From Escherichia coli (GTDB taxonomy: Bacteria > Pseudomonadota > Gammaproteobacteria > Enterobacterales > Enterobacteriaceae): a DNA stretch of 64,000 nucleotides. Under the pieces are notes generated by a model. The model saw only the letters and a list, made by a program, of their open reading frames with translations, had not been told where the DNA came from and ran no database searches. Position numbers and translations under genes: made by a program. Positions 22,398-43,076 of the stretch are shown here, in pieces (position 1 is the first letter of the stretch; each line of letters opens with the position of its first letter). The stretch lies in the NCBI RefSeq assembly GCF_050320075.1, contig NZ_CP190018.1; one strand, given 5' to 3'.

Positions 22398-24299
22398 ATG
22401 TCAACCGGATTACGTTTCACACTGGAAGTGGACGGCCTGCCGCCGGATGCTTTTGCGGTGGTTTCCTTTCATCTGAACCAGTCACTCTCTTCGCTCTTTT
22501 CCCTCGATCTCTCCCTGGTCAGCCAGCAGTTTCTCTCCCTTGAATTTGCGCAGGTGCTGGACAAAATGGCCTACCTGACGGTATGGCAGGGCGATGACGT
22601 ACAGCGCCGGGTGAAAGGCGTGGTGACCTGGTTTGAACTCGGGGAGAACGACAAAAACCAGATGCTGTACAGCATGAAGGTGCACCCGCCGCTGTGGCGT
22701 GCCGGTCTGCGCCAGAACTTCCGTATCTTCCAGAACGAGGACATCAAAAGCATCCTCGGCACGATGTTGCAGGAAAACGGGGTGACCGAATGGAGTCCGC
22801 TGTTCAGCGAGCCGCATCCTTCCCGTGAGTTTTGTGTCCAGTACGGTGAGACTGATTACGATTTCCTGTGCCGGATGGCGGCGGAGGAAGGCATCTTCTT
22901 TTATGAGGAGCATGCTTACAAAAGTACCGACCAGAGCCTGGTGCTGTGCGACACAGTCCGCCATCTGCCCGAATCTTTTGAAATCCCATGGAACCCGAAC
23001 ACCCGTACCGAGGTGAGCACCCTCTGCATCAGCCAGTTCCGCTACAGCGCACAAATCCGCCCTTCTTCCGTGGTGACCAAAGACTACACCTTTAAACGCC
23101 CCGGCTGGGCCGGACGTTTTGAACAGGAAGGCCAGCACCAGGACTACCAGCGCACGCAGTATGAAGTGTATGACTACCCCGGACGTTTCAAGGGTGCCCA
23201 CGGGCAGAACTTTGCCCGCTGGCAGATGGACGGCTGGCGAAACAATGCAGAAACCGCGCGGGGAATGAGTCGCTCGCCGGAGATATGGCCGGGACGACGA
23301 ATTGTGCTGACGGGGCATCCGCAGGCGAACCTGAACCGGGAATGGCAGGTGGTGGCAAGTGAACTGCACGGCGAACAGCCACAGGCGGTGCCAGGACGGC
23401 AGGGAGCGGGGACGGCGCTGGAGAACCATTTTGCGGTGATCCCGGCAGACAGAACATGGCGACCACAGCCGTTGCTGAAACCGCTGGTCGACGGCCCGCA
23501 GAGCGCTGTCGTGACAGGACCGGCAGGCGAGGAAATCTTCTGCGACGAACATGGTCGCGTGCGGGTGAAGTTCAACTGGGACCGCTATAACCCGTCAAAC
23601 CAGGACAGTTCGTGCTGGATCCGTGTGGCACAGGCGTGGGCAGGCACCGGTTTTGGCCACCTGGCGATACCGCGTGTGGGTCAGGAGGTGATTGTAGACT
23701 TCCTCAACGGCGATCCGGACCAGCCGATCATTATGGGGCGCACCTACCACCAGGAAAACCGCACCCCCGGCAGCCTGCCGGGAACAAAGACGCAGATGAC
23801 CATCCGCTCCAAAACGTACATGGGCAGCGGATTTAATGAGCTGAAGTTTGATGATGCGACAGGGAGAGAACAGGTCTACATCCACGCGCAGAAGAACATG
23901 GATACCGAAGTGCTCAACGACCGTACCACCACCGTAAAACACGATCACCACGAAACCGTAAAAAATGACCAGACGGTCACGATCCAGGAAGGTAACCGCC
24001 TTCTTACGGTGGAAAAAGGCCACAAGATCACCGGAGTACTGAAAGGGTCTTTATCTGAGGATGTCTTTCAGGACAGAGGCACGATTGCCGGTTCGGTGCA
24101 TGTTGACGCTGTAAACAATGGTGGCGAAGGCGACGGTATACAGGCTTATACGGCGATTAAGGAAATTTTGCTGGCCGTGGAGGAAAGCAAAATTGCGCTG
24201 ACGCCGGATGGCATTCAGCTACAGGTCGGGGAATCGACGGTAATCAGGCTGTCGAAGGATGGCATCACCATCGTGGGCGGTTCTGTTTTCATCAACTGA
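22398..24299 (+). CDS. vgrG: Type VI secretion spike protein VgrG (gp27/gp5-like)
   Basis: 633-aa ORF MSTGLRFTLEVDGLPPDAFAVVSFHLNQSLSSLFSLDLSLVSQ... typical VgrG N-terminus; GGAGG RBS 7 nt upstream. Confidence 0.9.
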   Translation: MSTGLRFTLEVDGLPPDAFAVVSFHLNQSLSSLFSLDLSLVSQQFLSLEFAQVLDKMAYLTVWQGDDVQRRVKGVVTWFELGENDKNQMLYSMKVHPPLWRAGLRQNFRIFQNEDIKSILGTMLQENGVTEWSPLFSEPHPSREFCVQYGETDYDFLCRMAAEEGIFFYEEHAYKSTDQSLVLCDTVRHLPESFEIPWNPNTRTEVSTLCISQFRYSAQIRPSSVVTKDYTFKRPGWAGRFEQEGQHQDYQRTQYEVYDYPGRFKGAHGQNFARWQMDGWRNNAETARGMSRSPEIWPGRRIVLTGHPQANLNREWQVVASELHGEQPQAVPGRQGAGTALENHFAVIPADRTWRPQPLLKPLVDGPQSAVVTGPAGEEIFCDEHGRVRVKFNWDRYNPSNQDSSCWIRVAQAWAGTGFGHLAIPRVGQEVIVDFLNGDPDQPIIMGRTYHQENRTPGSLPGTKTQMTIRSKTYMGSGFNELKFDDATGREQVYIHAQKNMDTEVLNDRTTTVKHDHHETVKNDQTVTIQEGNRLLTVEKGHKITGVLKGSLSEDVFQDRGTIAGSVHVDAVNNGGEGDGIQAYTAIKEILLAVEESKIALTPDGIQLQVGESTVIRLSKDGITIVGGSVFIN

Positions 24300-24326
24300 T
24301 TCACTCAGATTATCAGGGAGTATTTT

Positions 24327-24788
24327 ATGCAGTTCACTTTTAATGAAGGCCACATTCAACTGCCGTCTCAATGGCAGGATCAGTCAATGCAGGTCCTGGT
24401 GTCCACAGATAACAGTGGCATCAACCTGGTCATTACCCGCGAAGCCGTTCCACAGGGAACCCTGACACCAGAGCTGTACCAGGAAACGCTGGCGCTGTAC
24501 CAGGGCAAACTTGATGGGTACACCGAACATGCCTGCCGGGAAATCACTCTGGCAGAGGCCCCGGCCTGGCTGCTGGATTATTCCTGGAACGGTCCGGAAG
24601 ATGAGGGGAATCAGGGGCGGATTAGCCAGATAGCCGTATTCCAGCGGCGTGGAGATACGCTGCTGACCTTCACTTTCAGCACCTCCTTATCCCTGAAGAA
24701 CAGTCAAAAGACGATGCTGCTGGAGGTGATAAAGAGCTTCACCCCGTTGCCACCGGAGAATGACATCCAAAAGGACCAGCCGCGCTGA
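24327..24788 (+). CDS. DUF1795-family (Eag-type) effector-associated chaperone
   Basis: 153-aa ORF immediately between vgrG and a prePAAR-Rhs gene; size and position match Eag chaperones; family assignment from memory of the sequence class, not from a search. Confidence 0.65.
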   Translation: MQFTFNEGHIQLPSQWQDQSMQVLVSTDNSGINLVITREAVPQGTLTPELYQETLALYQGKLDGYTEHACREITLAEAPAWLLDYSWNGPEDEGNQGRISQIAVFQRRGDTLLTFTFSTSLSLKNSQKTMLLEVIKSFTPLPPENDIQKDQPR

Positions 24789-24807
24789 CATAAACGAGGG
24801 ATAACAC

Positions 24808-27800
24808 ATGAGTGAAGGACCAGGCGGGCCACAGGGAGCGACCGCAGGCGGTACGCTGGCAATGCGAATGCTGTCACAGCAGGCGATGGTCGCCAGCCAG
24901 ATGAAACGGGCAGCCAACGACAAAGCCATTGCACAGATGCTGGCATCAAAAAAGTCCGGCCCCCCCGCCGCCAGGCTGGGCGATGAAATTCAGCACAAGA
25001 GTTTTTTGGGGGCGCTGGCAGGGGCCGTGCTGGGGGCGATAGTGACCATCGCAGAAGGTTGCCTGATTATGGCCGCCTGTGCCACCGGCCCTTATGCGCT
25101 GGTTCTGGTGCCTGCGCTGATGTATGCCAGCTATAAGGCGAGTGATTATGTGGAGGAGAAACAGAACCAGCTTGAATCATGGATAAACAGCTTTTGTGAC
25201 ACGGACGGCGCCATCAATACCGGTTCTGAAAATGTAAACATTAACGGAAAGCCCGCTGCCAGGGCCGCCGTCACCCTTCCCCCTCCTCCCCCACCTGGAG
25301 CAATACCTGAAATCCCACAGGGGGAACCCTCATGGGGTGATATTGCCACTGACCTGCTTGAATCGGCAGCGGAAAAAGCAGTACCACTGGCGAAGGCCTG
25401 GGGGAACGCTGTTATCACCCTGACGGACAGCAATGCCGGTTTTATGGATCGCGTCAGCGCCGGCGCATCGCTTCTGTTTCCCGCCGGTCCGGTATTAATG
25501 GAGTTTGCCACCATGGTGGGCGGGCGTGGCGAAATCAAAAAAGATGTGGATTTCCCGGAAGCCGGTGAGGACACGGCGCTCTGCGACAAGGAGAACAAAC
25601 CACCGAGGATAGCCCAGGGCAGCAGCAACGTCTTTATCAACAATCAGCCCGCCGCGCGCAAGGGCGACAAACTGGAGTGCAGCGCGGCAATCGTGGAAGG
25701 TTCGCCGGACGTCTTTATTGGCGGTGAACAGGTGACCTATCTGGATATCCAGCCAGAGTTCCCGCCGTGGCAGAGAATGATCCTGGGGGGAATAACGATA
25801 GCCAGCTATCTTCTGCCGCCAGCGGGACTGCTGGGAAAACTGAAGAATCTGGCGAGACTCGGCAAACTGGGGAACCTGCTGGGGAAAAGCGGGAAGCTGC
25901 TGGGGGCAAAGCTCGGCGCGTTGCTGGGAAAAACAGGTAAGTCGTTAAAAAGTATTGCCAATAAAGTCATCAGATGGGTAACAGATCCTGTCGATCCGGT
26001 AACCGGCGCGTACTGCGACGAACGTACCGACTTTACGCTGGGCCAGACCCTCCCCCTCTCCTTCACCCGTTTCCACAGTTCTGTACTGCCGCTGCATGGC
26101 CTGACCGGCGTGGGCTGGAGCGACTCCTGGAGCGAATACGCCTGGGTGCGTGAACAGGGAAACCGGGTGGATATCATCAGCCAGGGAGCCACGCTGAACT
26201 TCGCCTTCGACGGTGACAGTGATACGGCGGTTAACCCGTATCACGCCCAGTACATTCTGCGCCGCCGCGATGATTATCTGGAGCTGTTCGACAGGGATGC
26301 ACTGAGCAGCCGCTTCTTTTATGACGCCTTTCCGGGAATGCGTCTGCGCCACCCGGTGACTGACGATACCAGCGATGACCGCCTGGCACACAGCCCCAAT
26401 GACCGGATGTACATGCTGGGCGGGATGAGCGACACCGCCAGCAACCGCATCACGTTTGAGCGCGACAGCCAGTACCGGATCACAGGTGTCAGTCACACCG
26501 ACGGGATCCGGCTTAAACTGACGTACCACGCCAGCGGCTACCTGAAAGCCATTCACCGCACGGATAACGGCATACAGACGCTGGCGACCTACGAACAGGA
26601 TGCGCGGGGGCGGCTGACAGAAGCGGATGCGCGGCTGGACTACCACCTGTTTTATGAGTACGACGCTGCGGACCGGATCATCCGCTGGTCCGATAACGAC
26701 CAGACGTGGAGCCGTTTCACCTACGATGAACAGGGCCGGTGCGTGAATGTCACCGGGGCGGAGGGCTATTACAACGCCACGCTGGACTATGGTGACGGCT
26801 GCACCACCGTGACGGACGGCAAGGGCATTCACCGTTATTACTATGATCCTGACGGCAATATTCTGCGGGAAGCAGCGCCGGACGGCAGCACCACCATGTA
26901 TGAATGGGATGAATTCCATCACCTGCTGGCCCGTCACTCCCCTGCCGGGCGGGTGGAGAAATTTGAATACAACGCCGCACACGGTCAGTTAAGCCGTTAC
27001 ACGGCGGCAGACGGCGCGGAGTGGCAGTACCGCTATGATGAGCGCGGCCTGCTCAGCAACATCACCGACCCTGCCGGGCAGACGTGGACACAGCAGTGTG
27101 ATGAACGCGGCCTGCCGGTAAGTCTGGTGTCGCCACAGGGCGAAGAGACCCGGCTGGCATACACCGCTCAGGGGCTGCTGTCGGGAATATTCCGCCAGGA
27201 TGAACGGCGTCTGGGCATAGAGTACGACCACCACAACCGGCCGGAAACACTCACCGACGTGATGGGCCGCGAACACCACACCGAATACAGTGGTCACGAC
27301 CTGCCGGTGAAGATGCGCGGCCCCGGCGGTCAGTCAGTGAGGTTGCAGTGGCAGCAGCACCATAAACTGAGCGGCCTTGAGCGCACTGGCACCGGCGCGG
27401 AAGGATTCCGCTACGACCGTCACGGCAACCTGCTGGCGTACACGGACGGTAACGGTGTTGTCTGGACAATGGAGTACGGCCCGTTTGATTTGCCGGTGGC
27501 GCGAACGGACGGTGAAGGCCACCGCTGGCAGTACCGCTACGATAAAGACACGCTGCAACTGACAGAAGTCATCAACCCGCAGGGTGAGTCATATCTTTAT
27601 GTTCTGGATAACTGCGGCCGGGTGACGGAAGAGCGTGACTGGGGCGGCGTGGTCTGGCGTTACCGTTATGATGCCGATGGCCTGTGTACCGCCAGGGTTA
27701 ACGGTCTGGAGGAAACCATCCTCTACAGCCGGGACGCCGCAGGCCGCCTGGCAGAAGTCATCACGCCGGAAGGCAAAACGCAGTATGCGTATGACAAATC

Positions 27801-29640
27801 CGGCAGGCTGACGGGTATCTTCAGCCCGGACGGCACATCACAGCGCACCGGCTATGACGAACGCGGGCGGGTGAATGTCACCACTCAGGGCCGACGGGCC
27901 ATTGAATACCACTACCCCGATGAACACACCGTCATCCGCTGTATCCTGCCACCGGAAGATGAACGCGACAGACACCCCGGTGAATCCCTGCTGAAAACCA
28001 CGTACCGCTACAACGCAGCCGGAGAACTGGCAGAGGTCATCCTGCCGGAGGATGAGACGCTGACGTTCAGCCGTGATGAGGCAGGACGTGAAGTGCTCCG
28101 GCACAGTAACCGGGGTTTTGCCTGTGAGCAGGGCTGGAATGCAGCCGGTCAGCTTACCAGCCAGCGCGCCGGACTTTTCCCGGCGGAAGCCACATGGGGC
28201 GGACTGCTCCCCTCACTGGTGCGGGAGTACCGTTACGACAGCGCGGGCAATGTGTCGGCTGTCACCAGCCGGGAAGATTACGGACGGGAAACTCGCCGGG
28301 AGTACCGGCTGGACCGGAACGGCCAGGTCACGGCGGTGACAGCCTCAGGCACCGGGCTGGGCTATGGCGAAGGCGATGAGTCCTATGGCTATGACAGCTG
28401 CGGCTACCTGAAGGCGCAGTCTGCGGGCTGGCACCGGATAAGTGAAGAGACTGACCAGTATGCCGGAGGCCACCGGCTGAAACAGGCCGGAAACACGCAG
28501 TATGACTATGACGCCGCAGGCCGGATGGTCAGCCGCATAAAACACCGTGACGGCTACCGCCCGGAAACAGAGCGGTTCCGGTGGGACAGCCGTGACCAGC
28601 TGACCGGGTATTGCAGCGCACAGGGTGAACAGTGGGAATACCGCCACGACGCCAGCGGCAGACGGACGGAAAAACGCTGCGACCGGAAGAAAATCCGCAT
28701 CACGTACCTGTGGGACGGCGACAGTATTGCGGAAATCCGGGAATACCGCGATGATAAACTGTACAGCGTACGGCACCTGGTGTTTAACGGCTTTGAGCTG
28801 ATAAGCCAGCAGTGCAGCCGGGTACGGCAGCCGCATCCGTCCGTGGCCCCGCAGTGGGTGACGCGGACGAATCATGCGGTGAGCGACCTGACGGGCCGTC
28901 CGCTGATGCTCTTTAACAGTGAAGGTAAAACCGTCTGGCGACCGGGGCAGACCAGCCTGTGGGGGCTGGCACTCAGCCTGCCCGCAGACACCGGCTACCC
29001 GGACCCGCGCGGGGAACTGGACGCGGAAGCCGACCCCGGCCTGCTGTATGCAGGACAGTGGCAGGATGCGGAATCCGGGCTGTGCTATAACCGGTTCCGG
29101 TATTACGAGCCGGAAACAGGGATGTACCTGGTGAGTGATCCGCTGGGGTTGCTGGGGGGTGAGCAGACTTACCGGTATGTGCCGAATCCGTGTGGGTATG
29201 TTGATCCGCTGGGATTAGCATTTTGCCCCAGAATGCAGAAGACATTGCAAAAATTAACTGACAAGGCTGTTGCTGATATTATCGCTAACCCCAGACTCGC
29301 TGAAGATCTGATGTCGGCGGGGAGCTATGCACATTTAAAAAATGGAACTAATTTATATGCAGCCAGTTTTGGTAAGGCTGTTGAACGTAGGGTTGCACAG
29401 TTAGTTAGTGACAATTCCCGATTAAGCAAACTTGTTGAACATACTGGTCAGGCCAAGGGGGCTAATGGACAGTTTATATCGAGCCCTGACTTCACCACTA
29501 AAGGTAAAGGCGTGTTCGACGTTACAACAAATAAAGCACTCCAAGCGCATATAGACAGATATACTAAAGCTGGTGTGTATACTCCCTATAATGATATTGG
29601 TTACTTGGTATATGATGTCGTATATGGATTATCTTTCTAA
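24808..29640 (+). CDS. rhs: prePAAR/PAAR-domain Rhs polymorphic toxin (T6SS effector) with C-terminal toxin domain
   Basis: 1610-aa ORF; N-terminal AARLGDEIQH (prePAAR AARxxDxxxH), hydrophobic TM segments, PAAR-like segments (NINGKPAAR, FINNQPAARKGD), long YD-repeat region, Rhs core ending PCGYVDPLGL (PxxxxDPxGL) at 29188-29217, followed by ~141-aa low-GC C-terminal domain. Confidence 0.9.
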   Translation: MSEGPGGPQGATAGGTLAMRMLSQQAMVASQMKRAANDKAIAQMLASKKSGPPAARLGDEIQHKSFLGALAGAVLGAIVTIAEGCLIMAACATGPYALVLVPALMYASYKASDYVEEKQNQLESWINSFCDTDGAINTGSENVNINGKPAARAAVTLPPPPPPGAIPEIPQGEPSWGDIATDLLESAAEKAVPLAKAWGNAVITLTDSNAGFMDRVSAGASLLFPAGPVLMEFATMVGGRGEIKKDVDFPEAGEDTALCDKENKPPRIAQGSSNVFINNQPAARKGDKLECSAAIVEGSPDVFIGGEQVTYLDIQPEFPPWQRMILGGITIASYLLPPAGLLGKLKNLARLGKLGNLLGKSGKLLGAKLGALLGKTGKSLKSIANKVIRWVTDPVDPVTGAYCDERTDFTLGQTLPLSFTRFHSSVLPLHGLTGVGWSDSWSEYAWVREQGNRVDIISQGATLNFAFDGDSDTAVNPYHAQYILRRRDDYLELFDRDALSSRFFYDAFPGMRLRHPVTDDTSDDRLAHSPNDRMYMLGGMSDTASNRITFERDSQYRITGVSHTDGIRLKLTYHASGYLKAIHRTDNGIQTLATYEQDARGRLTEADARLDYHLFYEYDAADRIIRWSDNDQTWSRFTYDEQGRCVNVTGAEGYYNATLDYGDGCTTVTDGKGIHRYYYDPDGNILREAAPDGSTTMYEWDEFHHLLARHSPAGRVEKFEYNAAHGQLSRYTAADGAEWQYRYDERGLLSNITDPAGQTWTQQCDERGLPVSLVSPQGEETRLAYTAQGLLSGIFRQDERRLGIEYDHHNRPETLTDVMGREHHTEYSGHDLPVKMRGPGGQSVRLQWQQHHKLSGLERTGTGAEGFRYDRHGNLLAYTDGNGVVWTMEYGPFDLPVARTDGEGHRWQYRYDKDTLQLTEVINPQGESYLYVLDNCGRVTEERDWGGVVWRYRYDADGLCTARVNGLEETILYSRDAAGRLAEVITPEGKTQYAYDKSGRLTGIFSPDGTSQRTGYDERGRVNVTTQGRRAIEYHYPDEHTVIRCILPPEDERDRHPGESLLKTTYRYNAAGELAEVILPEDETLTFSRDEAGREVLRHSNRGFACEQGWNAAGQLTSQRAGLFPAEATWGGLLPSLVREYRYDSAGNVSAVTSREDYGRETRREYRLDRNGQVTAVTASGTGLGYGEGDESYGYDSCGYLKAQSAGWHRISEETDQYAGGHRLKQAGNTQYDYDAAGRMVSRIKHRDGYRPETERFRWDSRDQLTGYCSAQGEQWEYRHDASGRRTEKRCDRKKIRITYLWDGDSIAEIREYRDDKLYSVRHLVFNGFELISQQCSRVRQPHPSVAPQWVTRTNHAVSDLTGRPLMLFNSEGKTVWRPGQTSLWGLALSLPADTGYPDPRGELDAEADPGLLYAGQWQDAESGLCYNRFRYYEPETGMYLVSDPLGLLGGEQTYRYVPNPCGYVDPLGLAFCPRMQKTLQKLTDKAVADIIANPRLAEDLMSAGSYAHLKNGTNLYAASFGKAVERRVAQLVSDNSRLSKLVEHTGQAKGANGQFISSPDFTTKGKGVFDVTTNKALQAHIDRYTKAGVYTPYNDIGYLVYDVVYGLSF
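27186..29217 (+). repeat. Direct repeat copy 1 (3' part of Rhs core, ~2.03 kb)
   Basis: Near-identical to 30384..32412 (visible by eye: ATTCCGCCAGGATGAACGGCGTCTGGGCATAGAGTACGACCACCAC... through ...GATCCGCTGGGATT). Confidence 0.9.
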
Positions 29641-29662
29641 AGCAAACTAATGGTAACTAAAT

Positions 29663-30373
29663 ATGACAAAAGTTCTTGAGAATGAAGAGTTCAATTCTAT
29701 ACATATAGACGAAGGTGGGGTTTTTAATAGTTTACGCTTTGAAAAATGTCTTTTTCAAAGCTGTAGCATACTTAGCAGAAAACTAAATGATAATAGTGAT
29801 TTACCTCCTCGCTTTGAAAACATTCTCATTAAAGATTGCACTGCTCTTAATTGTGTAAGTGGCCCAGCTTTTTTAAAAGATGTAACTGTTGAGAATTTTA
29901 GGACCGGTGATATTTTTCTTATTTATTCCACTATGTTTCATCATGTAACATTAAAAGGAAAGCTTGGGGCAATAAAAATAAATAAAAAAGATTATGTGCG
30001 TGACTATGATAGCCATCAAAGACATATTGAGATGATGAGAACGAGATTTTATTCTCAGATAGATTGGGCGATGGATATATCACAGGCGAAGTTTTTAAGT
30101 TTCTCCTGCAAAGGTATCCCAGCAAAATTAATTAGACGAGATAGTGAGACTCAATTTGTTGTAACGAGGAAACGTTTCAACTCTATGGATGTACTAAATG
30201 CAGAATTTAAAGGACAATACCCGTTTGTTTATTTACTGCTGGAGCTCTTTTTAGAATCAGATGAAGATGACCAGGTATTAGTTACACCATTAGGCAAAGC
30301 AAAAAAATATTATCAGCCAATTCTCGAAGGATTTAGAGAGTTAAGACGAGCAGGAATACTCGAACCTAACTAA
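29663..30373 (+). CDS. Putative cognate immunity protein of the Rhs C-terminal toxin
   Basis: 236-aa ORF starting 22 nt after the rhs stop, AT-rich codon usage unlike the Rhs core; position is the canonical immunity slot. No recognisable family. Confidence 0.6.
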   Translation: MTKVLENEEFNSIHIDEGGVFNSLRFEKCLFQSCSILSRKLNDNSDLPPRFENILIKDCTALNCVSGPAFLKDVTVENFRTGDIFLIYSTMFHHVTLKGKLGAIKINKKDYVRDYDSHQRHIEMMRTRFYSQIDWAMDISQAKFLSFSCKGIPAKLIRRDSETQFVVTRKRFNSMDVLNAEFKGQYPFVYLLLELFLESDEDDQVLVTPLGKAKKYYQPILEGFRELRRAGILEPN

Positions 30374-30383
30374 ATAAGGGTTA

Positions 30384-32412
30384 TATTCCGCCAGGATGAA
30401 CGGCGTCTGGGCATAGAGTACGACCACCACAACCGGCCGGAAACACTCACCGACGTGATGGGCCGCGAACACCACACCGAATACAGTGGTCACGACCTGC
30501 CGGTGAAGATGCGCGGCCCCGGCGGTCAGTCAGTGCGCTTACAGTGGCAGCAGCACCATAAACTGAGTGGCCTTGAGCGCACTGGCACCGGCGCGGAAGG
30601 ATTCCGCTACGACCGCCACGGCAACCTGCTGGCCTGGACGGACGGTAACGGTGTTGTCTGGACAATGGAATACGGCCCGTTTGATTTGCCGGTGGCGCGA
30701 ACGGACGGTGAAGGCCACCGCTGGCAGTACCGCTACGATAAAGACACGCTGCAACTGACAGAAGTCATTAACCCGCAGGGTGAGTCATATCTTTATGTTC
30801 TGGATAACTGCGGCCGGGTGACGGAAGAGCATGACTGGGGCGGCGTGGTCTGGCGTTACCGCTATGACGCCGATGGCCTGTGTACCGCCAGGGTCAACGG
30901 CCTGGAGGAAACCATCCTCTACAGCCGGGACGCCGCAGGCCGCCTGGCAGAAGTCATCACGCCGGAAGGCAAAACGCAGTATGCCTATGACAAATCCGGC
31001 AGGCTGACGGGTATCTTCAGCCCGGACGGCACATCACAGCGCACCGGCTATGACGAACGCGGGCGGGTGAATGTCACCACTCAGGGCCGACGGGCCATTG
31101 AATACCACTACCCCGACGAACACACCGTCATCCGCTGTATCCTGCCACCGGAAGATGAACGCGACAGACACCCCGGTGAATCCCTGCTGAAAACCACGTA
31201 CCGCTACAACGCCGCCGGAGAACTGACGGAGGTCATTCTGCCGGGGGATGAGACGCTGACGTTCAGCCGTGATGAGGCAGGACGTGAAGTGCTCCGGCAC
31301 AGTAACCGGGGTTTTGCCTGTGAACAGGGCTGGAATGCAGCCGGTCAGCCTGTCAGTCAGCGCGCCGGACTTTTCCCGGCAGAAGCCACATGGGGCGGGC
31401 TGCTCCCCTCACGGGTACGGGAGTACCGTTACGACAGCGCGGGTAATGTGTCAGGCGTCACCAGCCGGGAAGATTACGGACGGGAAACACGGCGGGAATA
31501 CCGGCTGGACCGGAACGGCCAGGTCACGGCGGTGACAGCCTCAGGCACCGGGCTGGGCTATGGCGAAGGCGATGAGTCCTATGGCTATGACAGCTGCGGC
31601 TACCTGAAGGCGCAGTCTGCGGGCTGGCACCGGATAAGTGAAGAGACTGACCAGTATGCCGGAGGCCACCGGCTGAAACAGGCCGGAAACACGCAGTATG
31701 ACTATGACGCCGCAGGCCGGATGGTCAGCCGCATAAAACACCGTGACGGCTACCGCCCGGAAACAGAGCGGTTCCGGTGGGACAGCCGTGACCAGCTGAC
31801 CGGGTATTGCAGCGCACAGGGTGAACAGTGGGAATACCGCCACGACGCCAGCGGCAGACGGACGGAAAAACGCTGCGACCGGAAGAAAATCCGCATCACG
31901 TACCTGTGGGACGGCGAAGTATTGCGGAAATCCGGGAATACCGCGATGATAAACTGTACAGCGTACGGCACCTGGTGTTTAACGGCTTTGAGCTGATAAG
32001 CCAGCAGTTCAGCCGGGTACGGCAGGCGCATCCGTCGGTGGCCCCGCAGTGGGTGACACGGACGAATCATGCGGTGAGCGACCTGACGGGCCGTCCGCTG
32101 ATGCTCTTTAACAGTGAAGGTAAAACCGTCTGGCGACCGGGACAGACCAGCCTGTGGGGGCTGGCACTCAGCCTGCCCGCAGACACCGGCTACCCGGACC
32201 CGCGCGGGGAACTGGACCCGGAAGCCGACCCCGGCCTGCTGTATGCAGGACAGTGGCAGGATGCAGAATCCGGGCTGTGCTATAACCGGTTCCGGTATTA
32301 CGAGCCGGAAACCGGGATGTACCTGGTGAGTGATCCGCTGGGGTTGCTGGGGGGTGAGCAGACTTACCGGTATGTGCCAAATCCGTGTGGGTGGGTTGAT
32401 CCGCTGGGATTG
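30384..32412 (+). repeat. Direct repeat copy 2 (orphan Rhs core fragment)
   Basis: See copy 1 at 27186..29217. Confidence 0.9.
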
Positions 32413-32865
32413 GCTGCAAGTTCTAAAATCAGCAGTTTGATGGACTATATTGGCGATGGTCGTCGTGTTAGTGGGCATACGGGTTTCCTGGATGGGGTTC
32501 GTTTATCACGTAGTCAAATAAACAATATTGCTAAAGAAATGGAGAAGCTAGGAATTAAAGTAATAAGGAAAGCAGATAAATATTTGCCACCAAATGCTAG
32601 GGCAGCTTTTGATTATGGCCTTCGCAATATTTATCTTAGGAAAAATGCTACCTTATATGAGGTGTATCATGAAGTGATTCATGCTAAGCAATTTGCGAAA
32701 ATTGGACGAGAAGCATACGAAGCACTAGGACGTTTATCTAGGGAGGAACACGTTCTAAATGAAATATTAAAAAGTAAAAATTTATTCAATGAGGCGGAAA
32801 TAGCTCATGCCATAAAATATGTTGAGGGATTGAGAGAAAAATTCATGATGGGACTAATAAATTGA
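30384..32865 (+). pseudogene. Orphan Rhs core-fragment + alternative C-terminal toxin domain, frameshifted
   Basis: Repeats the 3' 2 kb of the rhs core; 1-bp deletion near 31917 (GGCGAAGTATTGCGG vs GGCGACAGTATTGCGG in the main copy) splits it into ORFs 30455..31996 and 31828..32865; ends DPLGL (32398-32412) + divergent ~150-aa CT containing HEVIH. Confidence 0.8.
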
Positions 32866-33113
32866 TAAAACATAACAAAATAACTATCGAAATGGCTCTT
32901 GACTTGGCTCGGCGTGAGTTAGAGTTAAGGGAAATTCCTTATATTAAAAATAGTCTACATGCCAATTACAGCTATAAATCTATTAGTATTGGTTCTAAGC
33001 AAGGTTGGTTAATTTCAGCGAAATTAAAAGTCCCTGAAACTTTTGAGCCTGATATGATATTTATTGAGATATCTGACCCAGAAGGTTTTATTAATATTCC
33101 TGATGTATTATAA
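32862..33113 (+). CDS. Putative immunity protein for the orphan Rhs-CT
   Basis: 83-aa low-GC ORF overlapping the orphan CT stop; start codon uncertain (TTG in ORF track). Confidence 0.45.
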   Translation: MIKHNKITIEMALDLARRELELREIPYIKNSLHANYSYKSISIGSKQGWLISAKLKVPETFEPDMIFIEISDPEGFINIPDVL

Positions 33114-33309
33114 ACTACGTTAGAGGTTTTGTTATAAGGTAATCGGTTTCTTTACAGACCGCTGGCGTACATCGCACAGAGGCTGCTAACAGGGATATTC
33201 CTGCCTGGATGAACGCAAGGCAAGATCATGGAAATAGTGATATACATCACTATTTCCATCCTGATTTTAGCTATCGCATTAATAAAACAGCGGATGTTAG
33301 CCAATATCG

Positions 33310-33500
33310 AAACCAGTAACCCGTATCACGCCCAGTACATCCTGCGCCGCCGCGATGATTACCTGGTGCTGTTCGACCGTGATGCCCTGAGCTGCCGCTT
33401 CTTTTATGACGCCTTTCCGGGAATGCGTCTGCGCCACCAGGTGACCGGCGATACCGACGATGACCGCCTGGCACACAGCCCCGCAGACCGGATGTATACA
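33310..33500 (+). pseudogene. Vestigial Rhs core fragment
   Basis: NPYHAQYILRRRDDYLVLFDRDALSCRFFYDAFPGMRLRH... matches main rhs at ~26228..26420; embedded in ORF 33228..33539 with unrelated flanks. Confidence 0.7.
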
Positions 33501-33579
33501 GGGAAAGATCATCAGAAGTACACTTTTTGTACTAAATAATTCACATTTTATGTTTAAAAATTGAGATATTCCTCATTAC

Positions 33580-34800
33580 CTGAAGCTGTTTTTTATTGCT
33601 TATACATGATCAAATACTCCTTACATAATTAAGGAGAACAAAATGGAACTTAAAAAATTGATGGAACATATTTCTATTATTCCCGATTACAGACAAGCCT
33701 GGAAAGTGGAACATAAATTATCGGATATTCTATTGTTGACTATTTGTGCCGTTATTTCTGGTGCGGAAGATTGGGAAGATATAGAGGATTTTGGGGAAAC
33801 ACATCTCGATTTTTTGAAGCAATATGGTGATTTTGAAAATGGTATTCCTGTTCACGATACCATTGCCAGAGTTGTATCCTGTATCAGTCCTGCAAAATTT
33901 CACGAGTGCTTTATTAACTGGATGCGTGACTGCCATTCTTCAGATGATAAAGACGTCATTGCAATTGATGGAAAAACGCTCCGGCACTCTTATGACAAGA
34001 GTCGCCGCAGGGGAGCGATTCATGTCATTAGTGCGTTCTCAACAATGCACAGTCTGGTCATCGGACAGATCAGGACGGATGAGAAATCCAATGAGATTAC
34101 AGCTATCCCAGAACTTCTTAACATGCTGGATATTAAAGGAAAAATCATCACAACTGATGCGATGGGTTGCCAGAAAGATATTGCAGAGAAGATACAAAAA
34201 CAGGGAGGTGATTATTTATTCGCGGTAAAAGGAAACCAGGGGCGGCTAAATAAAGCCTTCGAGGAAAAATTTCCGCTGAAAGAATTAAATAATCCAGAGC
34301 ATGACAGTTACGCAATGAGTGAAAAGAGTCACGGCAGAGAAGAAATCCGTCTTCACATTGTTTGCGATGTCCCTGATGAACTTATTGATTTCACGTTTGA
34401 ATGGAAAGGTCTGAAGAAATTATGCGTGGCAGTCTCCTTTCGGTCAATAATAGCAGAACAAAAGAAAGAGCCAGAAATGACGGTCAGATATTATATTAGT
34501 TCTGCTGATTTAACCGCAGAGAAGTTCGCCACAGCAATCCGAAACCACTGGCACGTGGAGAATAAGCTGCACTGGCGTCTGGACGTGGTAATGAATGAAG
34601 ACGACTGCAAAATAAGAAGAGGAAATGCAGCAGAATTATTTTCAGGGATACGGCACATCGCTATTAATATTTTGACGAATGATAAGGTATTCAAGGCAGG
34701 GTTAAGACGTAAGATGCGAAAAGCAGCCATGGACAGAAACTATCTGGCGTCAGTCCTTGCGGGGAGCGGGCTTTCGTAATCTTGCCCTGCCTGCTCACCT
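33580..34800 (+). mobile_element. H-rpt / ISAs1-family insertion sequence (approximate bounds)
   Basis: Transposase CDS 33643..34779; terminal inverted repeats not delimited by me. Confidence 0.5.
33643..34779 (+). CDS. H-repeat-associated protein / ISAs1-family transposase (H-rpt)
   Basis: 378-aa [63 protein letters not shown]... recognised as the H-rpt (YhhI/YdcC-like) transposase that accompanies Rhs elements. Confidence 0.85.
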
Positions 34801-35049
34801 CCTCCAGGCACTTCCACTACATGATGACCTGCTCGGTGCCACCGCTCCTTTTCACTATGACGTTAACCTCCCTGTCCCAGGACACCATGCTTTTGTCTAC
34901 ATTCTACGCAAACGGCAACTTTTATAACCAGTGTAAAAATAACGTGCCGCAATAGTCATACCTATTAATGGTAAAAAGCTGTCACAATTCATAAAAAACC
35001 TTAATATACGCCACCCTAAACATAACCAGCGTTAATGTAAGGTTTTTGT

Positions 35050-37287
35050 GTGGACTGGCTTCTTGATGTTTTTGCTACCTGGCTCTACGGCTTAAAAGTA
35101 ATCGCGATAACGTTAGCGGTCATCATGTTCATCAGCGGGCTGGACGATTTTTTTATTGATGTCGTCTACTGGGTACGCCGCATTAAACGCAAGTTGAGTG
35201 TTTATCGCCGCTACCCGCGAATGAGTTACCGCGAACTGTATAAACCAGATGAAAAACCGTTAGCGATTATGGTTCCGGCGTGGAATGAAACGGGCGTCAT
35301 CGGCAATATGGCCGAGCTGGCGGCGACCACGCTCGACTATGAAAACTATCATATCTTTGTTGGCACCTACCCCAACGACCCCGATACTCAGCGTGATGTT
35401 GACGAAGTGTGCGCTCGCTTCCCGAATGTGCATAAGGTAGTCTGCGCGCGACCTGGCCCCACCAGCAAAGCCGACTGCCTGAACAACGTGCTGGACGCCA
35501 TCACCCAGTTTGAGCGTAGCGCCAATTTCGCTTTTGCTGGTTTTATTCTGCATGACGCCGAAGATGTGATTTCACCGATGGAATTGCGTCTGTTCAACTA
35601 TCTGGTCGAGCGTAAAGATCTGATTCAGATCCCGGTGTATCCGTTCGAACGCGAATGGACGCACTTCACCAGCATGACTTACATTGATGAGTTTTCAGAA
35701 CTGCATGGCAAAGATGTTCCGGTGCGTGAAGCCCTCGCCGGACAAGTGCCCAGCGCAGGCGTCGGTACCTGTTTCAGCCGCCGCGCCGTGACCGCACTGT
35801 TAGCTGACGGTGACGGTATTGCTTTCGACGTGCAGAGTCTTACTGAAGATTACGACATTGGCTTCCGCCTGAAAGAAAAAGGTATGACGGAAATTTTTGT
35901 CCGTTTTCCGGTGGTGGACGAAGCCAAAGAACGCGAGCAGCGTAAATTTTTACAGCACGCGCGGACGTCAAACATGATCTGCGTGCGCGAATATTTCCCC
36001 GATACCTTTTCGACTGCGGTTCGACAAAAATCTCGCTGGATCATCGGCATTGTTTTCCAGGGCTTTAAAACCCACAAATGGACCTCCAGTCTGACGCTGA
36101 ACTACTTTCTCTGGCGCGACCGCAAAGGGGCAATCAGTAACTTTGTCAGCTTCCTCGCGATGCTGGTGATGATCCAGCTTTTGCTGTTGCTGGCGTATGA
36201 AAGTTTGTGGCCCGATGCCTGGCATTTCCTTTCTATTTTCAGCGGCAGCGCATGGTTAATGACTCTGCTGTAGCTAAACTTTGGCTTGATGATTAACCGC
36301 ATCGTGCAGCGGGTGATTTTCGTTACTGGCTACTACGGCCTGACGCAGGGGCTGCTATCTGTCCTGCGTCTTTTCTGGGGCAACCTGATTAACTTCATGG
36401 CCAACTGGCGCGCGTTAAAACAGGTACTTCAACACGGCGATCCACGTCGTGTCGCGTGGGATAAAACAACGCATGACTTCCCCAGCGTGACTGGCGATAC
36501 CCGCTCGTTGCGTCCGTTAGGTCAAATCCTGCTGGAAAATCAGGTCATCACTGAAGAACAACTCGATACAGCACTGCGTAATCGCGTCGAAGGTCTACGC
36601 CTGGGCGGTTCAATGCTGATGCAGGGGCTGATTAGCGCCGAACAGCTGGCACAGGCGCTGGCAGAGCAAAACGGCGTGGCGTGGGAGTCGATCGACGCCT
36701 GGCAGATCCCTTCATCACTGATTGCCGAAATGCCGGCTTCCGTGGCGCTGCATTATGCAGTACTGCCGCTGCGTCTGGAAAATGATGAGTTAATTGTCGG
36801 CAGTGAAGATGGTATTGACCCGGTTTCGCTGGCGGCCCTGACGCGTAAAGTCGGACGCAAAGTGCGTTACGTCATTGTTCTGCGGGGACAAATTGTCACG
36901 GGGTTACGCCACTGGTATGCGCGCCGACGCGGTCACGATCCGCGGGCAATGTTGTACAATGCGGTTCAGCATCAGTGGCTCACGGAACAGCAGGCCGGTG
37001 AAATCTGGCGGCAATATGTGCCGCATCAGTTCCTGTTCGCCGAAATACTGACCACGCTCGGTCATATTAATCGTTCAGCAATTAACGTGTTGTTATTGCG
37101 CCATGAACGCAGTTCTCTGCCGCTCGGCAAGTTTTTGGTCACCGAAGGCGTTATCAGCCAGGAAACGTTGGATCGCGTCCTGACAATTCAACGCGAATTA
37201 CAAGTTTCGATGCAATCACTATTACTCAAAGCAGGTTTAAACACAGAACAGGTTGCGCAACTGGAGTCCGAAAATGAAGGAGAATAA
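35050..37287 (+). pseudogene. nfrB: Phage N4 adsorption protein B (family-2 glycosyltransferase), interrupted by in-frame amber codon
   Basis: ORFs 35050..36273 (407 aa) and 36286..37287 (333 aa) are in the same frame, separated only by TAG at 36271-36273; 407+1+337 = 745 codons, the full NfrB length as I recall it. Confidence 0.8.
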
Positions 37288-40246: not shown

Positions 40247-41137
40247 ATGCGTAAGTTCATTTTCGTATTGCTGACACTGCTTTTGGTCAGCCCTTTTTCC
40301 TTTGCGATGAAAGGTATTATCTGGCAACCACAAAACCGTGATAGTCAGGTTACCGATACCCAGTGGCAGGGGCTGATGAGTCAGTTACGTTTGCAAGGCT
40401 TCGATACCCTGGTTTTGCAATGGACCCGTTACGGCGATGCATTCACCCAGCCAGAACAGCGCGCGTTATTGTTTAAGCGTGCAGCAGCTGCGCAACAGGC
40501 TGGCCTGAAGCTGATTGTCGGGCTGAATGCCGATCCGGAATTTTTTATGCACCAGAAACAGTCATCCGCGGCGCTGGAAAGCTATCTTAATCGCCTGCTG
40601 GCTGCCGATCTCCAGCAAGCCAGATTATGGAGCGCCGCGCCTGGCGTAACGCCGGATGGCTGGTATATCAGCGCGGAAATTGACGACCTGAACTGGCGCA
40701 GCGAAGCCGCCCGTCAACCTTTGCTGACATGGTTAAACAACGCTCAGCGGTTGATTAGCGATGTTTCAGCAAAACCGGTTTATATCAGTAGTTTTTTCGC
40801 CGGAAACATGTCGCCCGATGGCTATCGCCAACTGCTGGAACACGTTAAAGCAACCGGCGTTAATGTCTGGGTACAGGATGGCAGCGGCGTGAATAAACTT
40901 ACCGCTGAACAGCGTGAACGTTATCTACAGGCCAGCGCCGATTGCCAGAGTTCCGCCCCAGCAAGCGGCATTGTTTATGAACTGTTTGTCGCCGGCAAAG
41001 GCAAAACCTTTACAGCGAAACCGAAACCGAATGCAGAGATCGCCTCGCTGTTAGCGAAACGTTCCTCTTGCGGTAAAGACACGCTCTATTTCTCTCTGCG
41101 CTATTTGCCCGTCGCACACGGCATTCTCGAGTATTAA
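40247..41137 (+). CDS. ybcH: Conserved protein YbcH (DUF4434)
   Basis: 296-aa ORF with signal peptide; synteny nfrB-nfrA-ybcH. Confidence 0.85.
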   Translation: MRKFIFVLLTLLLVSPFSFAMKGIIWQPQNRDSQVTDTQWQGLMSQLRLQGFDTLVLQWTRYGDAFTQPEQRALLFKRAAAAQQAGLKLIVGLNADPEFFMHQKQSSAALESYLNRLLAADLQQARLWSAAPGVTPDGWYISAEIDDLNWRSEAARQPLLTWLNNAQRLISDVSAKPVYISSFFAGNMSPDGYRQLLEHVKATGVNVWVQDGSGVNKLTAEQRERYLQASADCQSSAPASGIVYELFVAGKGKTFTAKPKPNAEIASLLAKRSSCGKDTLYFSLRYLPVAHGILEY

Positions 41138-41319: not shown

Positions 41320-42072
41320 ATGCAATTGAGCAGCAGTGAACCTTGCGTGGTGATCCTGACCGAAAAAGAGGTAGAGGTAAGCGTTAATAACCATGCCACG
41401 TTTACCCTTCCGAAAAATTACCTGGCCGCCTTCGCGTGCAACAATAACGTCATTGAACTCTCAACGTTAAATCACGTATTAATCACCCACATCAACCGCA
41501 ACATCATCAACGATTATCTGTTGTTTTTAAATAAGAACTTAACCTGCGTAAAGCCCTGGTCGCGGCTGGCTACCCCGGTTATCGCTTGTCATAGCCGTAC
41601 ACCGGAAGTGTTCCGGCTAGCCGCCAACCACAGCAAGCAGCAACCCAGCAAACCCTGCGAAGCGGAGTTGACGCGCGCATTGCTTTTTACCGTATTGTCT
41701 AACTTTCTTGAGCAATCGCGGTTTATTGCCCTACTGATGTATATCTTACGCAGCAGCGTCCGCGACAGCGTCTGCCGCATTATTCAAAGCGATATTCAGC
41801 ATTACTGGAATCTGCGAATTGTCGCCAGTTCGCTATGTTTAAGCCCCAGCCTGCTCAAAAAGAAATTAAAAAACGAAAATACCAGCTATAGCCAGATTGT
41901 CACAGAGTGTCGTATGCGTTACGCCGTACAGATGTTATTGATGGATAACAAAAATATCACTCAGGTAGCGCAATTATGTGGCTATAGCAGCACGTCGTAC
42001 TTTATCTCTGTTTTTAAGGCGTTTTACGGCCTGACACCGTTGAATTATCTCGCCAAACAGCGACAAAAGTGA
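41320..42072 (+). CDS. envY: AraC-family transcriptional regulator (porin thermoregulation)
   Basis: 250-aa ORF MQLSSSEPCVVILTEKEVEVSVNNHATF... with C-terminal AraC HTH. Confidence 0.85.
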   Translation: MQLSSSEPCVVILTEKEVEVSVNNHATFTLPKNYLAAFACNNNVIELSTLNHVLITHINRNIINDYLLFLNKNLTCVKPWSRLATPVIACHSRTPEVFRLAANHSKQQPSKPCEAELTRALLFTVLSNFLEQSRFIALLMYILRSSVRDSVCRIIQSDIQHYWNLRIVASSLCLSPSLLKKKLKNENTSYSQIVTECRMRYAVQMLLMDNKNITQVAQLCGYSSTSYFISVFKAFYGLTPLNYLAKQRQK

Positions 42073-42125
42073 TGTGGTGAAGGGCAAAGCGGAAACGGAT
42101 AAGACGGGGATAAATGAAGAAGAAA

Positions 42126-42202
42126 TGGCGCGCCCTGCAGGATTCGAACCTGCGGCCCACGACTTAGAAGGTCGTTGCTCTATCCAACTGAGCTAAGGGC
42201 GC
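42126..42202 (-). tRNA. argU: tRNA-Arg (anticodon UCU)
   Basis: Reverse complement reads GCGCCCTTAGCTCAGTTGGATAGAGCAACGACCTTCTAAGTCGTGGGCCGCAGGTTCGAATCCTGCAGGGCGCGCCA; cloverleaf-compatible, anticodon loop CTTCTAA. Confidence 0.92.
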
Positions 42203-42443
42203 GTTGATACCGCAATGCGGTGTAATCGCGTGAATTATACGGTCAACCCTTGCTGAGTCAATGGCTTTTGATCTGGTTGCTGAACAAGTGAACGACCGCG
42301 TCTGATTTTCTGATTTATTCGCTATAGCGGCAAACAAACGCACATCGCTGCGCGTCTGAATCAAGAAAACCCGTATTTTCATGTATCAAAGTACAATTTC
42401 CCGCCCTAACGGAAAATTGTCCGATCCAATGAGACTGGTAACT

Positions 42444-43076
42444 ATGAAACCAACGTCGGTGATCATTATGGATACTCATCCTATCATCAGAATGTCTATT
42501 GAAGTTCTGTTGCAAAAAAACAATGAATTGCAAATTGTCCTGAAAACGGATGATTATCGCATAACCATCGATTATCTCCGAACCCGTCCTGTTGATTTAA
42601 TTATTATGGATATAGACTTGCCCGGAACAGACGGTTTTACCTTCCTGAAAAGGATCAAACAAATCCAGAGCACAGTGAAAGTATTATTTTTATCATCGAA
42701 ATCAGAATGCTTTTATGCTGGCAGAGCGATACAAGCTGGTGCTAACGGTTTTGTCAGTAAATGCAATGATCAGAATGATATTTTTCACGCCGTTCAGATG
42801 ATCCTCTCCGGATACACTTTTTTTCCCAGCGAAACGCTCAACTATATAAAAAGCAATAAATGCAGTACGAATAGTTCAACGGTCACGGTGCTATCTAATC
42901 GTGAAGTGACCATATTACGTTATCTGGTTAGCGGATTATCCAATAAAGAAATTGCCGATAAGTTATTACTTAGCAATAAAACAGTTAGTGCGCATAAATC
43001 TAATATTTATGGCAAGCTAGGTTTGCATTCAATTGTAGAGCTTATCGACTACGCCAAATTATATGAATTAATATAA
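42444..43076 (+). CDS. fimZ: LuxR/FixJ-family response regulator of fimbrial expression
   Basis: ORF 42381..43076; start at MKPTSVIIMDTHPIIRMSIEVLL...; receiver domain + C-terminal LuxR HTH. Confidence 0.85.
   Translation: MKPTSVIIMDTHPIIRMSIEVLLQKNNELQIVLKTDDYRITIDYLRTRPVDLIIMDIDLPGTDGFTFLKRIKQIQSTVKVLFLSSKSECFYAGRAIQAGANGFVSKCNDQNDIFHAVQMILSGYTFFPSETLNYIKSNKCSTNSSTVTVLSNREVTILRYLVSGLSNKEIADKLLLSNKTVSAHKSNIYGKLGLHSIVELIDYAKLYELI

Follow-up and report, generated by a model that had tools for sequence, protein, structure and literature searches.

A natural W408* amber allele of nfrB truncates the c-di-GMP-activated glycosyltransferase NfrB before its MshEN domain in a wild Escherichia coli clone

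The window analysed here, a 64,000-nucleotide stretch of Escherichia coli DNA, carries an nfrB gene that is interrupted by an amber codon in place of Trp408. This W408* change is a genuine, inherited nfrB allele, and we consider it very probable that it is also a loss-of-function allele, the product being truncated after the GT2 domain with loss of MshEN. As a nonsense pseudogene of a phage-receptor pathway, W408* is nothing out of the ordinary.

The window sequence reads TAG at 36271-36273, in frame within nfrB (35050-37287). Translated in one frame, this interval comprises 746 codons with a lone internal stop (...GSAWLMTLL*LNFGLMINRIVQ...): 407 sense codons precede the TAG and a further 337 lie between it and the terminal stop; the ORF list likewise gives two pieces, 35050..36273 and 36286..37287, that share one frame. 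Sequence and translation thus agree with the original prediction that a single in-frame TAG splits nfrB, and its count of 407 + 1 + 337 codons gives exactly the 745-residue NfrB. The closest intact allele, that of strain CFSAN061763, encodes a 745-residue NfrB with TGG at codon 408 and shows 3 differing positions in 5.4 kb, including 36272 (A in the window, G in the relative). The ancestral codon is therefore TGG (Trp408), and a G>A transition at 36272 created the amber codon, just as the earlier proposal of a TGG-to-TAG substitution had it. Compared with thousands of otherwise near-identical genes, W408* is a one-base difference. An in-frame stop at a codon that is still sense in the closest relatives, followed by an intact remaining frame, is what defines a nonsense pseudogene. 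The further claim of a truncation at residue 407 of 745 with an intact nfrA downstream is confirmed by translation and annotation. The features of the locus are collected in Table 1.

Table 1. The interrupted nfrB gene and adjoining features in the window.
Feature	Position	Strand	Basis
Native cusS-nfrB intergenic region, ~143 bp, retained 5' of nfrB	34907..35049	+	Alignment with L007
nfrB 5' part, 407 codons: N-terminal membrane helix, GT2 domain, first and most of second linker helix	35050..36270	+	Pfam, motifs, hydropathy
Amber codon TAG replacing Trp408 (TGG), mutated base 36272 G>A	36271..36273	+	Sequence, in-frame translation, G at 36272 in CFSAN061763 (L003)
nfrB 3' part, 337 sense codons and stop: linker-helix end, c-di-GMP-binding MshEN region	36274..37287	+	Pfam, PDB matches, residue check
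Possible restart ORF, ATG = Met414, 15 nt after TAG, 332 aa	36289..37287	+	Sequence; called as a separate gene in other assemblies
nfrA, outer-membrane Nfr component, intact, 990 aa, WP_001586784.1	37274..40246	+	Annotation
ybcH (DUF4434), third gene of the nfrBA-ybcH operon, intact	40247..41137	+	Annotation

NfrB consists of two domains joined by two putative transmembrane helices (Junkermeier and Hengge, PMC8669469), and it has been proposed to polymerise the N4 glycan receptor (NGR), which is exported via NfrA (PMC8669472). Both GT activity and c-di-GMP binding of NfrB are needed for N4 infection (PMC8669469), and a G491L substitution abolishes N4 killing (Sellner et al., PMC8669472). In the window, Pfam places Glyco_trans_2_3 at NfrB residues 165-382 and Glyco_tranf_2_3 at 70-332 (GT2 E-values 2e-40 and 6e-35). 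The DxD, TED and QxxRW motifs of the NfrB GT2 domain are all present, at their published positions (D169, TED 265-267 and QKSRW 326-330). The MshEN domain is found by Pfam at residues 542-628, and PDB matches to the c-di-GMP-binding N-domains of MshE, PilB and PilF extend over residues 487-625. The residues used in the literature (D169, D267, W330, L490, G491, G519 and L537) occur here at the same positions. Hydropathy peaks, taken as the linker helices, lie at about residues 365-383 and 393-411, and codon 408 falls within the second. MshEN is thus still encoded, but 3' of the TAG and no longer in the same polypeptide as the GT2 domain. The genomic context is that of nfrB, with nfrA following at a 14-nt overlap and then ybcH. 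By descent the locus is nfrB, but its product falls short of a complete NfrB.

Of 5426 complete E. coli genomes, 5118 match a 2.4-kb query spanning the site, and the matched locus is always annotated as nfrB or nrfB ("cyclic di-3',5'-guanylate-activated glycosyltransferase") with nfrA next to it; in 396 of the 5426, no contiguous match extends over 80% or more of the query. Only two records among these complete genomes are identical to the window over the whole query, and both carry W408*: NZ_CP123240.1 (strain YZLc1-3, chicken faeces, China) and NZ_CM192149.1 (strain Ec-U3, human urine, Burkina Faso). Their bit score is 4434, against 4429 in many other complete genomes, and the next-best records are one base different from the window. 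PGAP annotates nfrB in both carriers as a pseudogene and adds the note "internal stop". An exact 61-mer with the TAG occurs in the same number of complete genomes (2 of 5426). Across the approximately 5040 complete genomes that have the locus, codon 408 is a stop in three (two TAG and one TGA) and TGG elsewhere. The TGA is found on a different haplotype in strain VTB97420v from chicken (NZ_CP178690.1, 3568245-3568305) and is an independent origin of the same truncation.

The window is identical to YZLc1-3 over the first 50 kb but for one SNP in nfsB (9960), and identical to Ec-U3 over positions 1-61400 but for a 1-bp indel at about 31918; the three belong to the same clone, of which the window is a third assembly or version that equals neither record exactly. 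This carrier is a wild clone related to ST38-type genomes, with chicken and human isolates. In the public assembly collection, the look-up of the exact 407-residue truncated product located it in 184 blocks and recorded it on 151 contigs, and 21 of the 24 contigs that were read for it show the arrangement of the window. The same-haplotype allele is also present in at least two further NCBI assemblies besides YZLc1-3 and Ec-U3. As to the two small differences within the clone, codon 93 of nfsB is GCC (Ala) in the window and in Ec-U3 and ACC (Thr) in YZLc1-3; changes in NfsB are frequently associated with resistance to nitrofurans. The other is a 1-bp deletion relative to Ec-U3 (GGCGA-AGTATT versus GGCGACAGTATT) in an orphan zincin-like metallopeptidase rhs-toxin fragment (30383-32865), which is annotated as 'frameshifted' in YZLc1-3 and not in Ec-U3.

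The rest of the operon, whose nfrBA-ybcH structure has been described (PMC8669469), is in order. nfrA has its own GGAG 7 nt 5' of its ATG, and is therefore translatable independently; the exact NfrA product is found on at least 1000 contigs. On the upstream side, comparison was made with a second haplotype (L007) in which cusS directly abuts nfrB, and identity with the window begins about 143 bp 5' of the GTG start. As this native region is retained, the neighbouring insertion element has left the nfrB promoter region in place. The window has an island between cusS and nfrB (22398-34779) with vgrG, DcrB-like and RHS-toxin genes, orphan toxin fragments and an ISEc1 (ISAs1-family) transposase, and its insertion point is the exact end of the native upstream region. 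We considered whether this island had silenced nfrB at an earlier time and found no evidence for it: the intergenic region is whole, and nfrB is intact in relatives that carry the same island. The nfrB start itself (35048-35052) is a GUGUG motif with two overlapping GUG codons; nfrB has been listed among GUGUG initiation sites, with the SD sequence UAAGG and very low protein abundance (PMC9841429). Further downstream, a tRNA-Arg(TCT) lies 53 bp past envY and just before fimZ (42072-42444). On the K-12 map, the DLP12 prophage and ompT lie between argU and envY. In the strain of the window the argU site thus seems to be unoccupied, with ompT missing from the envY-fimZ locus.

The possible presence of an amber suppressor, raised in the original prediction together with a check for supE and supF, was examined by scanning the 5426 complete genomes for CTA-anticodon versions of tyrT, glnV, serU, leuX and trpT, which cover five classical single-step amber suppressor alleles. 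The supE (glnV) allele served as a positive control and was detected in 155 complete genomes, which shows that the scan works. Of these supE carriers, the 40 that were listed are for the most part named laboratory strains of K-12 (C600, DH5alpha, DH1, J53 and others). For several supE (glnV CUA) records the host is entered as 'Homo sapiens' or 'mouse gut', yet by serotype or genome size they look K-12-derived. The suppressor alleles supF (tyrT/tyrV) and trpT (CUA) are present in none of the 5426, and supD (serU) in only one, DSM 498, an unrelated laboratory strain. For supP (leuX) there is no full-length perfect match among the 5426; the seven leuX records at '>=99%' are inferred to be partial, as exactly seven records fall below 80% coverage and a full-length perfect match would rank above the 98.8% rows that head the list. 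In addition, the gln tRNA cluster was read directly in YZLc1-3 and Ec-U3, and both glnV and glnX have the wild-type CTG anticodon. With glnV and glnX wild type and no supF, supD, supP or trpT allele in the carriers, a suppressor background is rejected, and W408* is unsuppressed as far as these five classical alleles go.

We also looked up, in the public assembly collection, the exact products that would result from stops at other Trp codons of the same NfrB haplotype. Besides W408* itself, with the contig count given above, W203* was found on 84 contigs, W330* on 65, W344* on 123, W355* on 130, W387* on 142, W402* on 48 and W391*, the most abundant natural truncation among the eight looked up, on 359. 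All seven other Trp truncations are thus present, on 48-359 contigs versus 151, and codon 408 is rejected as a special or hot site. As controls, we used Trp-codon truncations in neighbouring genes with equally common full-length haplotypes (at least 1000 contigs). Contigs per truncation numbered 54, 24, 61 and 39 in pheP, 8, 9 and 0 in ybdG, 7 and 0 in cusB, and 0, 0 and 0 in fes. The median is 126.5 contigs for the eight nfrB truncations and 7.5 for the 12 controls (one-sided Mann-Whitney p=2e-4), where contig counts are not independent events, being inflated by clonal expansion and repeat sequencing, and are haplotype-specific and counted only up to 1000. The excess of nfrB nonsense alleles over the control genes is suggestive of selection and no proof of it. 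The 396 complete genomes that lack a match over most of the nfrB query point in the same direction, as do the nfrB and dgcJ lesions remarked on by Sellner et al. (PMC8669472). For nfrA truncations, taken as a same-pathway comparison, exact look-ups mostly miss, the nfrA protein haplotype being more variable. A 342-residue C-terminal NfrB fragment (P0033, residues 404-745, from Met404) has 1000 contigs or more to its name, complete genomes among them; one or more large E. coli lineages thus seem to carry upstream nfrB disruptions very commonly.

Judged by haplotype, W408* arose at least three times: as the TAG on the window haplotype; as a TAG in L007, in which 41 gene positions differ, the mutated base is flanked by SNPs at distances of 8 and 13 bp, and cusS is adjacent; and as a TGA in L010, a third haplotype. 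That the TAG passed from one lineage to another by recombination is unlikely, given the SNPs 8 and 13 bp away in L007 and the TGA in L010.

Several other explanations for the stop have to be weighed. That it is a sequencing or assembly error and that the true genome reads TGG, as the original prediction allowed, has next to no probability: errors typically show up as a single-base difference and the exact TAG 61-mer is rare among complete genomes, but the same base was obtained independently in two complete assemblies that differ in laboratory, host and continent, and it recurs in the further assemblies and contigs mentioned. Sequencing error is therefore excluded by this reproducibility. Very improbable, too, is that full-length functional NfrB persists because ribosomes pass the amber codon, with the help of a suppressor tRNA or through natural readthrough at high efficiency. 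The base following the stop is a C, and E. coli terminates comparatively weakly at TAG-C; there is also no second lesion in the remainder of nfrB. An intact downstream sequence is, however, expected anyway of a very recent mutation, none of the five classical suppressor alleles is in the carrier genomes, and basal UAG readthrough in a strain that has no suppressor is normally well under 1%. It is likewise unlikely, if somewhat less so, that nfrB has been split into two working parts, with translation restarting at Met414 to give a soluble MshEN protein that either re-associates with the GT fragment or binds c-di-GMP or DgcJ alone. The ATG lies so close to the stop that it is within the range of known bacterial termination-reinitiation; gene callers call the ORF as a gene, and the exact 332-aa product is recorded on 120 contigs. 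This product is also exactly the fragment, NfrB 414-745, that was purified as a soluble c-di-GMP-binding domain of high affinity (PMC8669469). Against a split, the 20 nt 5' of the ATG at 36289 contain no Shine-Dalgarno match, and the cut inside a hydrophobic helix deprives the GT fragment of part of its membrane anchor. A maintained split, like programmed recoding, would be conserved with its stop kept across lineages, whereas this allele is rare and recent (three of about 5040 complete genomes), and truncations at many other codons are equally common, as expected of simple knockouts. A more far-reaching version, to which we give a shade less credence, is that the freed MshEN (414-745) titrates local c-di-GMP or DgcJ, or re-associates with the GT fragment, and that the recurrent linker truncations at 387-408 rewire local c-di-GMP signalling while escaping phage.

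More weight is due to the view that W408* is a knockout of neutral or slightly deleterious effect that drifted or hitch-hiked in a successful clone, which we regard as possible while leaning against it. Stop codons arise most often by a G:C>A:T change at TGG, the collection counts its E. coli assemblies in the hundreds of thousands, nonsense alleles occur in the control genes as well (24-61 contigs in pheP, 8-9 in ybdG, 7 in cusB), and contig counts reflect clone size. On the other hand, all eight nfrB truncations are present while five of the 12 control truncations are absent, with the difference in medians reported above, and the same truncation arose at least three times (two haplotypes with TAG, another with TGA). 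The neighbouring W391* was directly selected by phage in the laboratory (PMC12548472), and recurrent IS insertions, deletions and premature stops have been described in nfrB and dgcJ of some strains (Sellner et al., PMC8669472). Selection for resistance to N4-like phages, which the original prediction had offered as one possible cause, is plausible on this analysis, gains indirect support from the phage-selected W391* and from the abundance of nfrB nonsense alleles, and is unproven for this strain. The pattern suggests that nfrB is repeatedly hit by nonsense mutations in wild E. coli, which fits the published view of the glycan as costly or phage-exposing.

We return to W408* as a knockout allele. 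Translation stops inside the second hydrophobic inter-domain helix of NfrB, and the 407-residue product keeps the GT2 catalytic domain and loses residues 408-745, including MshEN; the 3' part of the gene now remains untranslated unless there is readthrough or restart. The MshEN domain that is lost binds c-di-GMP from DgcJ, by which NfrB is switched on. As the sensor domain and part of the membrane anchor are removed, loss of NfrB function is the expected outcome; the published analogues are MshEN point mutants and a single truncation, shorter by 17 codons, whose strain also carried an ompA mutation. A cell that has no MshEN and a broken membrane anchor would make no NfrB/NfrA-dependent surface glycan (NGR). 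Because N4 and related phages adsorb via NGR, the strain would be resistant to such phages, and in our analysis W408* probably confers resistance to N4-type phages. About 1 kb of untranslated mRNA 5' of nfrA may, in addition, lower nfrA-ybcH expression through Rho-dependent polarity. The allele might persist because of phage pressure or the cost of the glycan.

W408* is already flagged as a pseudogene in RefSeq and its class has already been noted in the literature. In our literature search W408* itself was unreported, and only a general statement (PMC8669472) and a W391* mutant (PMC12548472) were found. The allele leaves knowledge of the Nfr system unchanged. The predicted resistance bears on the choice of phages against a clone that is found in poultry and in human urine.

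Among known cases, the closest is the nfrB p.W391* mutation that was selected by phage PhiWec189 in E. coli TK001, in which sensitivity to four related phages was lost and nfrB complementation restored phage sensitivity (PMC12548472). Both are Trp-to-stop changes in the same inter-domain linker, W391 being 17 codons upstream of W408, and in both the GT domain is kept and MshEN is gone; however, W391* came from laboratory phage selection together with a second mutation in ompA, whereas W408* comes from natural isolates. Classical nfrB mutants with N4 resistance and the natural disruptions in E. coli B strains concern the same gene and operon. The expected consequence would also be the same as in the classical mutants, namely no NGR and no N4 adsorption, but W408* sits in a wild clone and not in a laboratory strain. 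With the amber mutations tolerated in supE or supF laboratory strains, W408* shares an in-frame TAG in an otherwise intact gene; it differs in that its carriers have none of the five classical single-step suppressor alleles tested. Finally, NfrB resembles the c-di-GMP-gated exopolysaccharide synthases (BcsA-PilZ and PgaCD) in being a processive GT2 synthase that depends on an attached c-di-GMP-binding domain, although its sensor is MshEN and not the PilZ of BcsA. By this analogy, removal of MshEN from NfrB would be expected to uncouple or kill its activity.
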